The notes under the pieces were generated by a model. That model worked only from the letters and a program-made list of their open reading frames with translations, did not search any database and was not told the DNA's origin. 64,000 nucleotides of DNA, taken from IMG/VR virus record IMGVR_UViG_3300045988_124250. One strand, 5' to 3'. The translations under genes and the position numbers were made by a program. Within the stretch, counting starts at the first letter, position 1; each line of letters begins with the position of its first letter. Of the stretch, positions 49,016 through 49,089 are shown piece after piece. Source of the DNA: a virus.

Positions 49016-49089
49016 TGGCACCGGCTCTCGGATTCGAACCGAGTCGACCTGATTTAGAGTCAGGCGGGCTACCATTACTCCAAGCCGGA
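49016..49089 (-). tRNA. trnSup(CUA): suppressor tRNA, anticodon CUA (reads UAG)
   Basis: perfect anticodon arm CCUGA-CUCUAAA-UCAGG and T-arm CUCGG-UUCGAAU-CCGAG; acceptor CCGGCU/AGCCGG with U1:U72 unpaired, G73, CCA; short variable loop; weak D-stem. Confidence 0.7.

Follow-up and report, generated by a model that had tools for sequence, protein, structure and literature searches.

An amber suppressor tRNA that very likely inserts glutamine at recoded UAG codons in a large uncultured phage

Here, we describe an amber suppressor tRNA (anticodon CUA) encoded at 49016..49089 on the minus strand of a 64,000-nt stretch of viral DNA (IMG/VR record IMGVR_UViG_3300045988_124250; hereafter, the window), which comes from a large uncultured gut or rumen phage with TAG recoded. 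This suppressor very likely inserts glutamine at UAG, and features of its sequence suggest that it is probably charged by the host glutaminyl-tRNA synthetase (GlnRS). The existence of the tRNA follows from its fold and conservation, while the assignment of TAG to glutamine is supported by comparative codon evidence from relatives of the phage.

ARAGORN identified a 74-nt tRNA with anticodon CTA at exactly 49016..49089 (minus strand), and the Rfam tRNA model RF00005 matched it over its full length (49019..49089, minus strand; 52.5 bits, E = 6.7e-9 in a 21-kb search), placing CUA and no other triplet at positions 34-36. Both programs thereby confirm the minus-strand tRNA(CUA) that had been proposed by a sequence-only reading of the window. 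Arm by arm, the molecule reads UCCGGCU UG GAGU AAUGGUA GCCC G CCUGA CUCUAAA UCAGG UCGA CUCGG UUCGAAU CCGAG AGCCGGU G CCA. The perfect 5-bp anticodon stem and 5-bp T stem, G73, the encoded CCA and the U1·U72 apposition were all described correctly by that reading, and the variable loop is 4 nt long. In the covariance model, just two non-pairs remain, U1·U72 and the D-stem A11·C24; the earlier account had recognized the first but missed the second. It had also likened the D loop to those of tRNA-Trp and tRNA-Gln, which holds true of the D arm, but a G that it counted in the D loop is G22, which pairs with U13 outside the 7-nt AAUGGUA loop. The covariance alignment retains all conserved tertiary nucleotides (G18G19, U33, and the T-loop), and minimum-free-energy folding of the tRNA alone was unremarkable (z = -0.95), as is usual for tRNAs. 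In the aligned copies of four relatives, the suppressor is identical at 70 of 71 positions, whereas the poorly conserved 85-nt leader that precedes it (49090..49174, minus strand) is just 78-80% identical, indicating that the tRNA is not a chance match and is under purifying selection.

The same features bear on whether the gene might be a decoy, or a tRNA in decay, that decodes nothing, with read-through coming from something else. Such decay might be read from the two non-canonical pairs (U1·U72 and A11·C24), the modest folding score and the insertions that remove the encoded CCA from the 3' end in two relatives; it is contradicted by the full-length covariance match with its tertiary nucleotides, by near-invariance despite divergent flanks, by a perfect and conserved promoter, by the position of this tRNA as the sole CUA tRNA where one is needed, and by the recurrence of the unpaired 1:72 in diverged suppressors and tRNA-Gln genes. 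We therefore regard a non-decoding tRNA as exceedingly improbable. The insertions themselves lie exactly after G73-C74 (corresponding to window 49017/49018) in loci L037 (1470-2260) and L034 (1105-1165). In contig 163304, the inserted segment spans ~790 nt and includes a GIY-YIG-like open reading frame (ORF) with its own in-frame TAGs, and in contig 147738 it is a remnant of ~60-75 nt; it is a mobile element aimed at the 3' end of the tRNA gene, and it leaves the suppressor copies of these two contigs without an encoded CCA.

In-frame TAGs occur in many bona fide genes of the window, as expected from the earlier claim that TAG is recoded. With TAG opened, ORF coverage (100 codons or more) rose from 69% to 84%. 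The minus-strand ORFs, whose ends are TAA (51) or TGA (12) by construction of the set, contain 85 TAG, 312 CAA, and 140 CAG codons, TAG thus making up ~16% of Gln-type codons. The base 3' of these TAGs is sense-like (A in 43-46% and T in 19-22%), while T follows 45% of true stops, and 71 TAG positions are conserved in close relatives. Reading frames that continue through TAG encode GyrA, PhoH, a lysin, two radical-SAM proteins, a papain-like peptidase, and several GIY-YIG endonucleases. The GyrA-like topoisomerase subunit (8780..11161, minus strand) carries one TAG, at codon index 597 of the stop-to-stop ORF, and aligns across it with gyrase A from the PDB (E = 2e-163), the TAG alternating with CAG or CAA in relatives; its true start is probably the TTG at 11161, 9 nt after GGAGAGGAGG. 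The PhoH-like ATPase (18263..19516, minus strand) has three TAGs and aligns across them with PDB entry 3b85 (E = 2.7e-15), one of them falling on the Q of the GD(I)TQ(V)D motif, where TAG and CAA interchange in relatives. Similarly, the lysin with its peptidoglycan-binding domain (16353..18191, minus strand) has three in-frame TAGs, and in relatives the conserved Q of the 'FQ' motif of that domain is TAG. A GIY-YIG homing-endonuclease-like gene (12149..12853, minus strand) also has three, including one in 'YIGxS' that is Q in 55 relatives (YIGQS), and a radical-SAM-like gene (52386..53672, minus strand), an insertion not found in relative L007, has nine. The suppressor is the sole CUA tRNA of the window, in agreement with the proposal that it decodes the TAG codons.

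To establish which amino acid TAG specifies, we turned to relatives, since the tRNA alone cannot separate Gln from Trp and it is the codon data that decide for Gln. All relative loci, from more than 100 IMG/VR relatives, were translated with TAG as X and then aligned to the minus-strand proteins of the window. The residues facing window TAGs were most often Q (201 cells), followed by K (107), E (99), and R (70), with W in only 7. In the reverse direction, 10% of window Q positions have TAG in some relative, rising to 15.8% in high-scoring segment pairs below 85% identity, as compared with 3% of W positions overall and 1.3% (1/75) in these diverged segments; for all residues other than Q and W, TAG was found in a relative at 2% of positions or fewer. 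Among conserved columns, in which at least 80% of cells hold one amino acid, TAG was found in 7 of 53 Q columns (47 cells), in none of 40 W columns, and in at most 2.6% of those of any other residue. Recent exchanges were collected from 17 clusters of genomes of at least 85% identity, taking ORFs of 150 codons or more without their first 30 codons. Across these clusters, TAG alternated with CAA at 30 positions and with CAG at 24, as against 4 each for TGG, GAG, and GAA and 3 for AAA and AAG together. These comparisons, which were not available to the sequence-only reading, support its suggestion that TAG is glutamine.

Glu and Lys have anticodons (CUC and CUU) a single step away from CUA, and insertion of one of these polar residues could be entertained because K, E, and R face TAG most often after Q, and a 4-nt variable loop is also a trait of tRNA-Glu. 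However, Q is commonly substituted by K, E, and R, and K and E positions have TAG in ~1.4-2%, about one-fifth or less of the 10% for Q. TAG is likewise present in just 1-2% of conserved K and E columns, the recent exchanges number 8 for GAA and GAG together and 3 for AAA and AAG against 54 for CAA and CAG, and the isotype profiles described below score lowest for Glu (8.3 bits), with Lys at 18.5. Taken together, these data make a Glu- or Lys-inserting suppressor highly improbable.

A further comparison is with tryptophan, that is, a suppressor derived from tRNA-Trp with TAG read as Trp. The tRNA array of the window lacks tRNA-Trp as well as tRNA-Gln, the D arm and the 4-nt variable loop are common to phage tRNA-Trp, a few of which also combine an unpaired 1:72 with G73, and TGG/TAG alternations were first seen at five positions among close relatives. 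Two of these five nevertheless lie out of the GyrA frame and are synonymous TTA/TTG leucine changes in the overlapping upstream RNase H gene; this artefact pair appeared as a MNxLINWLL / MNWLINxLL swap upstream of the GyrA start TTG at 11161. The remaining singleton changes (TGG to TAG, 3/732) are about as frequent as changes from TGG to TGA, a true stop (2), and thus behave like ordinary G-to-A noise or missense. Furthermore, the absence of TAG from all 40 W columns contrasts with its presence in 7 of 53 Q columns, its frequency at diverged W positions (1/75) is that of background, and the Trp profile falls 7.6 bits below the Gln profile. C35 is a major determinant for tryptophanyl-tRNA synthetase (TrpRS), and su+7, an amber suppressor that derives from tRNA-Trp of E. 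coli, receives mainly Gln. We consider it a remote prospect that TAG is Trp. A related proposal is that TAG is ambiguous, the suppressor being charged by both GlnRS and TrpRS, as in E. coli su+7, mostly with Gln and sometimes with Trp. The scaffold between Gln and Trp, the three singleton W-to-TAG variants in close relatives, and an array without Gln and Trp tRNAs would agree with it, yet W-to-TAG changes are no commoner than W-to-TGA changes, long-term exchange between W and TAG is lacking, and ambiguity is not needed to explain the data. Dual charging of this kind appears very unlikely.

Two aspects of the codon data count against a simple assignment to glutamine, namely the three singleton TGG-to-TAG changes in close relatives and the observation that CAG changed to TAG (11/757, 1.5%) far more rarely than to CAA (127/757, 17%). 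The latter suggests that TAG is tolerated and is not a fully neutral synonym of the Gln codons, which fits the idea that TAG is kept out of genes needing the standard code.

We next consider the body of the suppressor and its likely synthetase. The E. coli GlnRS identity set comprises a weak or unpaired U1:72, G73, G2:C71, G3:C70, G10, U35, G36, A37, and U38. The suppressor fits this set with U1 and its unpaired 1:72, G73, G10, U35, and A37, so that the earlier argument from GlnRS recognition features, G73 and the disrupted 1:72 pair, holds in part; positions 2:71, 3:70, and 38 depart from the set. Indeed, several features speak against GlnRS charging: C2:G71 and C3:G70 replace G2:C71 and G3:C70, A38 replaces U38, A36 replaces G36 (inherent in an amber suppressor), and the D stem contains the A11·C24 mismatch.

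The isotype was further assessed by anticodon-masked profile hidden Markov models (HMMs), with a reference of 727 phage tRNAs from IMG/VR loci among the matches listed for a generic CUA-tRNA scan. The Gln profile scored best at 27.0 bits, ahead of Thr (23.9), Met (22.5), Trp (19.4), and Lys (18.5), with Glu the lowest at 8.3. The weight of this ranking is reduced by the small margin over Thr and Met and by the 66% overall accuracy of the classifier in 4-fold cross-validation, in which Gln recall was 18/19, the precision of Gln calls was 18/29, and tRNAs miscalled as Gln comprised 1 of 16 for Trp, 1 of 23 for Glu, and 0 of 29 for Lys. These cross-validated profiles replaced a nearest-neighbour comparison with the anticodon masked, whose hits, at 70-76% identity, scattered meaninglessly over Leu, Ile, and Ser.

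Features of the acceptor end recur elsewhere. The phage tRNA-Gln(UUG) genes of loci L175, L161, and L178 have the same U1·U72, G73, CCA, and 4-nt variable loop as the suppressor. So do the strongly diverged suppressors of L119 and L132, distant relatives in which the neighbouring MVP-like and DUF2828 genes share 54-66% identity with those of the window; L188 has C1·U72. This recurrence in diverged suppressors and phage tRNA-Gln genes suggests that the unpaired 1:72 beside G73 is probably a functional feature. Against a clean Gln call, the combination also exists in some phage tRNA-Trp (U·U in 1 of 16 and C·U in 2 of 16, where A1:U72 or G1:C72 would be typical), and the suppressor has its D arm and 4-nt variable loop in common with some phage tRNA-Trp. 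The body is thus best described as a Gln/Trp-type scaffold that appears to lean toward Gln. In L175 and L161, the likeness to the phage tRNA-Gln(UUG) extends to the arm lengths (7/2/4/7/4/1/5/7/5/4/5/7/5/7/1) and the AAUGGUA D loop; L178 has a 9-nt D loop and otherwise resembles the suppressor in U1·U72, G73, the encoded CCA, and the 4-nt variable loop. All three differ from it by the anticodon UUG, by G2:C71, and by G3:C70, and their overall identity to it is low and does not imply common descent.

Comparison with two classical suppressors of E. coli is also instructive. supE (glnV44), which derives from tRNA-Gln(CUG) and inserts Gln at UAG, is well established; CUA is one step from CUG, and the window suppressor shares with supE the U1, the weak or absent 1:72 pair, G73, G10, U35, and A37, but differs in having C:G and not G:C at 2:71 and 3:70, A38 and not U, and a variable loop of 4 nt and not 5. 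With su+7 (supU), which derives from tRNA-Trp and is mischarged with Gln, it shares the Trp/Gln-type D arm and G73. In su+7, the CUA anticodon alone pushes a Trp-like body to GlnRS. The two differ in that su+7 has A1:U72 where the window suppressor has U1·U72, and in that the Gln profile exceeds the Trp profile here.

ARAGORN labelled the tRNA as tRNA-Pyl from its anticodon only, and this label was rejected. tRNA-Pyl has a small D loop, no G18G19 or canonical T-loop, a 6-bp anticodon stem, and a 3-nt variable loop, and goes together with pylS and pylBCD genes. In the suppressor, the D loop is a canonical AAUGGUA with GG, the T arm is GGUUCGAAUCC, the anticodon stem has 5 bp, and the variable loop has 4 nt. 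No pyl genes were present among the 30 largest or nearest ORFs scanned, and no release factor or aminoacyl-tRNA synthetase gene was found among the 30 ORFs scanned in these 64 kb of a genome of ~150-200 kb. A search with the suppressor body and a free anticodon yielded no matches in 185,579 bacterial and archaeal species genomes, so that a cellular ancestor or prophage copy was not found in this set.

The suppressor fits the published description of phages with genetic code 15 (TAG to Gln) in every feature tried, and the phenomenon is already known. Suppressor tRNAs for TAG occur in ~40% of TAG-recoded gut phages, in which TAG to Gln and TGA to Trp are the only reassignments reported, and it has been proposed that the host GlnRS is hijacked and that a switch from the standard to the alternative code gates late and lysis genes (Borges et al., 10.1101/2021.08.26.457843). 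A proteomic study reports that mass spectrometry confirms Q at TAG in crAss-like phages (Peters et al., PMC9523058). Known code 15 phages include crAss-like, Lak, and Garnet/Amethyst/Topaz/Agate-type clades (Borges et al., 10.1101/2021.08.26.457843; Peters et al., PMC9523058; Yutin et al., PMC7886860). The generic CUA-tRNA scan of IMG/VR was so rich in matches that phage amber suppressors must be common. With the code 15 phages, the window shares a CUA tRNA, in-frame TAGs in a subset of genes that includes the lysin, mostly TAG-free replication genes, TAG as Gln, standard-code relatives in the family, and the lack of a dedicated synthetase among the genes found, host GlnRS being presumed to act. 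It differs in that its suppressor belongs to a 26-27-gene tRNA array otherwise lacking tRNA-Gln, is preceded by a consensus promoter of its own, and lies upstream of a conserved structured RNA.

That array extends over 43964..61820 on the minus strand and comprises 26 ARAGORN genes and one candidate found by Rfam only, covering 18 amino acids and the suppressor. Neither ARAGORN nor Rfam detected tRNA-Gln(UUG/CUG) or tRNA-Trp in the window. The array of relatives terminates at tRNA-Phe(GAA), and the ~3-4 kb from there to the contig end contain no other tRNA. A perfect sigma-70-type promoter, TTGACA-17-TATAAT (12/12 matches to the consensus), is predicted at 49175..49203 (minus strand), ~85 nt upstream of the 5' end of the suppressor; both hexamers are kept in all aligned relatives, and the tRNA region has five such perfect promoters in all on its minus strand. 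This element would act as the promoter of the suppressor.

Downstream, a 166-nt spacer (48850..49015, minus strand) separates the suppressor from tRNA-Tyr(GUA), and RNAalifold predicts it to be a multi-helix RNA. It is 98% identical in three relatives and diverged in a fourth (contig 147738; loci L034 and L017), in which 6 of the 42 consensus pairs are compensatory, changed on both sides yet still paired. Overall, 99.4% of cells are paired, compared with 36-47% in slid controls. The spacer had no Rfam match at E<=1 and no homolog beyond close relatives, and the consensus fold suggests that it is probably an unannotated structured RNA, probably co-transcribed with the suppressor. One of its hairpins is T-arm-like (GGGUUCGAAGUGCCC). 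The next gene of the putative transcription unit is the tRNA-Tyr(GUA) with its long variable arm (48762..48849, minus strand; ARAGORN), after which a consensus scan found a terminator-like hairpin with a T-rich run (48707..48729, minus strand); this hairpin is weak, one being found against 1.0 expected from shuffles. The order Tyr-Sup-Val-Arg-Pro is syntenic in relatives. The tRNA-Tyr itself occurs as two alleles among genomes that are 92-96% identical (L007/L035): it matches contig 160359 at 54 of 87 positions and is 88/88 identical to contigs 163304 and 147738, which points to a cassette-like swap of single tRNA genes in the array.

This arrangement raises the question of whether the suppressor is the first gene of a dedicated 'code-switch' unit (promoter, suppressor tRNA, structured RNA, tRNA-Tyr, and terminator) whose RNA has a role in recoding or, as a variant, whether the scaffold is dual-charged and TAG slightly ambiguous. 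The structured RNA may, for example, take part in processing or charging of the suppressor or in countering release factor 1. We regard so specialized an arrangement as decidedly unlikely.

Our favoured explanation remains a suppressor that inserts glutamine. The CUA anticodon would pair with UAG, and ribosomes would insert an amino acid, almost certainly glutamine, where termination would otherwise occur; the phage would thereby translate the ~85 in-frame TAGs of the window. The suppressor probably has its own host-type promoter and forms a short unit with the 166-nt RNA and tRNA-Tyr, and such a promoter could allow the host RNA polymerase to make it from the start of infection. Host GlnRS would most likely be drawn to U35, G73, and the unpaired 1:72 end. 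We infer that host GlnRS aminoacylates the suppressor, that the suppressor competes with release factor 1, and when during infection it is expressed. Among the genes of the window, DnaB, GyrB, RNase H, both ligases, the RNA-repair genes, SHMT, and an aminotransferase are free of TAG, as are the SPFH, MVP-like, and DUF2828 genes, and the annotated replication and RNA-repair genes are TAG-free save GyrA with its single TAG. These replication and RNA-repair genes (GyrA excepted) would be translatable in the standard code of the host, and the lysin, PhoH, homing endonuclease, and radical-SAM genes would need the suppressor, a division that fits the published code switch during infection.

Several further observations concern the tRNA region and the distribution of TAG. 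Within the array, a CAU-anticodon tRNA-like sequence with a defective acceptor stem was found by Rfam only (58438-58507, minus strand; 35.8 bits), a tRNA-Phe has the unusual anticodon AAA (58222-58294, minus strand), and a tRNA-Glu(CUC) lies barely at the Rfam threshold (60013-60087, minus strand; 29.4 bits). Transporter genes lie amid the tRNAs, namely a formate/nitrite-transporter fragment (51836-52435, minus strand) and a full-length sodium:dicarboxylate symporter (54758-55948, minus strand; 306 bits), an unusual auxiliary cargo for a phage. An RNA-repair-like cluster (23549-32560, minus strand) encodes two calcineurin-like phosphoesterases, an AAA_33 (PNK-like) kinase, an RNA ligase, and an RlaP-family nucleotidyltransferase; it is TAG-free and adjoins the tRNA array, which suggests a defence against host anticodon nucleases. 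Two further TAG-free and unusually CAG-rich genes encode an MVP-like protein (33807-36299, minus strand) with major-vault-protein shoulder and vault-repeat domains (PF11978 and PF17795) and a DUF2828/DUF7788 protein (39757-41343, minus strand). In several unrelated viral loci (L119, L132, L188, L149, L207, and L238), DUF2828 homologs again have a suppressor tRNA or a tRNA array no more than a few kb away.

The modules at 36376-39757, 52385-53667, and 12005-13034 are without counterpart in some close relatives; they contain, respectively, a radical-SAM gene beside an ORF for a Cys/Gly-rich peptide (37315-38040) resembling a ribosomally synthesized and post-translationally modified peptide, a second radical-SAM gene with nine TAGs, and a GIY-YIG endonuclease gene. 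All three are TAG-rich and appear to be recent gains. Conversely, four TAG-free or nearly TAG-free minus-strand genes (22085-23488, 33810-36299, 39760-41343, and 2491-3510) use CAG more than CAA (for example, 25 to 4), whereas CAA predominates in the rest of the window (312 CAA to 140 CAG). Their preference could reflect recent acquisition or a distinct expression class.

With regard to lineage, megablast of 12 kb against deposited phages gave no match, and relatives were found in metagenome collections only; DnaB is at most 39% identical to those of deposited phages of Enterococcus, Staphylococcus, Bacillus, and Enterocloster. IMG/VR contains five close relatives at 92-96% nucleotide identity on contigs of 129-198 kb, all from metagenome 3300045988. 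A search with the exact anticodon arm recovered just four syntenic relatives, and the distant relatives L119, L132, and L188 were recovered by the generic CUA-tRNA pattern, among the matches listed. The DnaB family in IMG/VR adds 137 relatives at 67-100% amino-acid identity on contigs of up to 240 kb, of which 80 were fetched. We place the genome size of the lineage at roughly 150-200 kb. Its phage character is evident from relatives on viral contigs, from nearest deposited genomes that are phages, and from the lysin, homing endonucleases, and phage-type replication genes. For the SHMT of the phage, the nearest sequences (61-67%) come from gut and rumen Clostridia/Bacillota, a hint, and only a hint, that the host is probably a Firmicute. 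Within the family, 15 of 72 loci are without in-frame TAG in the same genes, and others have TAG at up to ~35% of Gln positions, so that code use varies within the lineage, as published for other clades.

Nothing in the suppressor finding alters the current understanding of recoded phages. It does have a practical consequence, since the genes of the window need genetic code 15 for calling, failing which the lysin, PhoH, GyrA, radical-SAM, and homing-endonuclease genes would be truncated. The unpaired 1:72 with G73, shared by suppressors and phage tRNA-Gln, offers a hint at how phages recruit host GlnRS. Finally, the window adds a new, well-documented case of TAG-to-Gln recoding, in a Firmicutes-associated lineage of ~150-200 kb genomes with no cultured representative, and the presence of standard-code and recoded members in one lineage makes it useful for the study of code-switch evolution.

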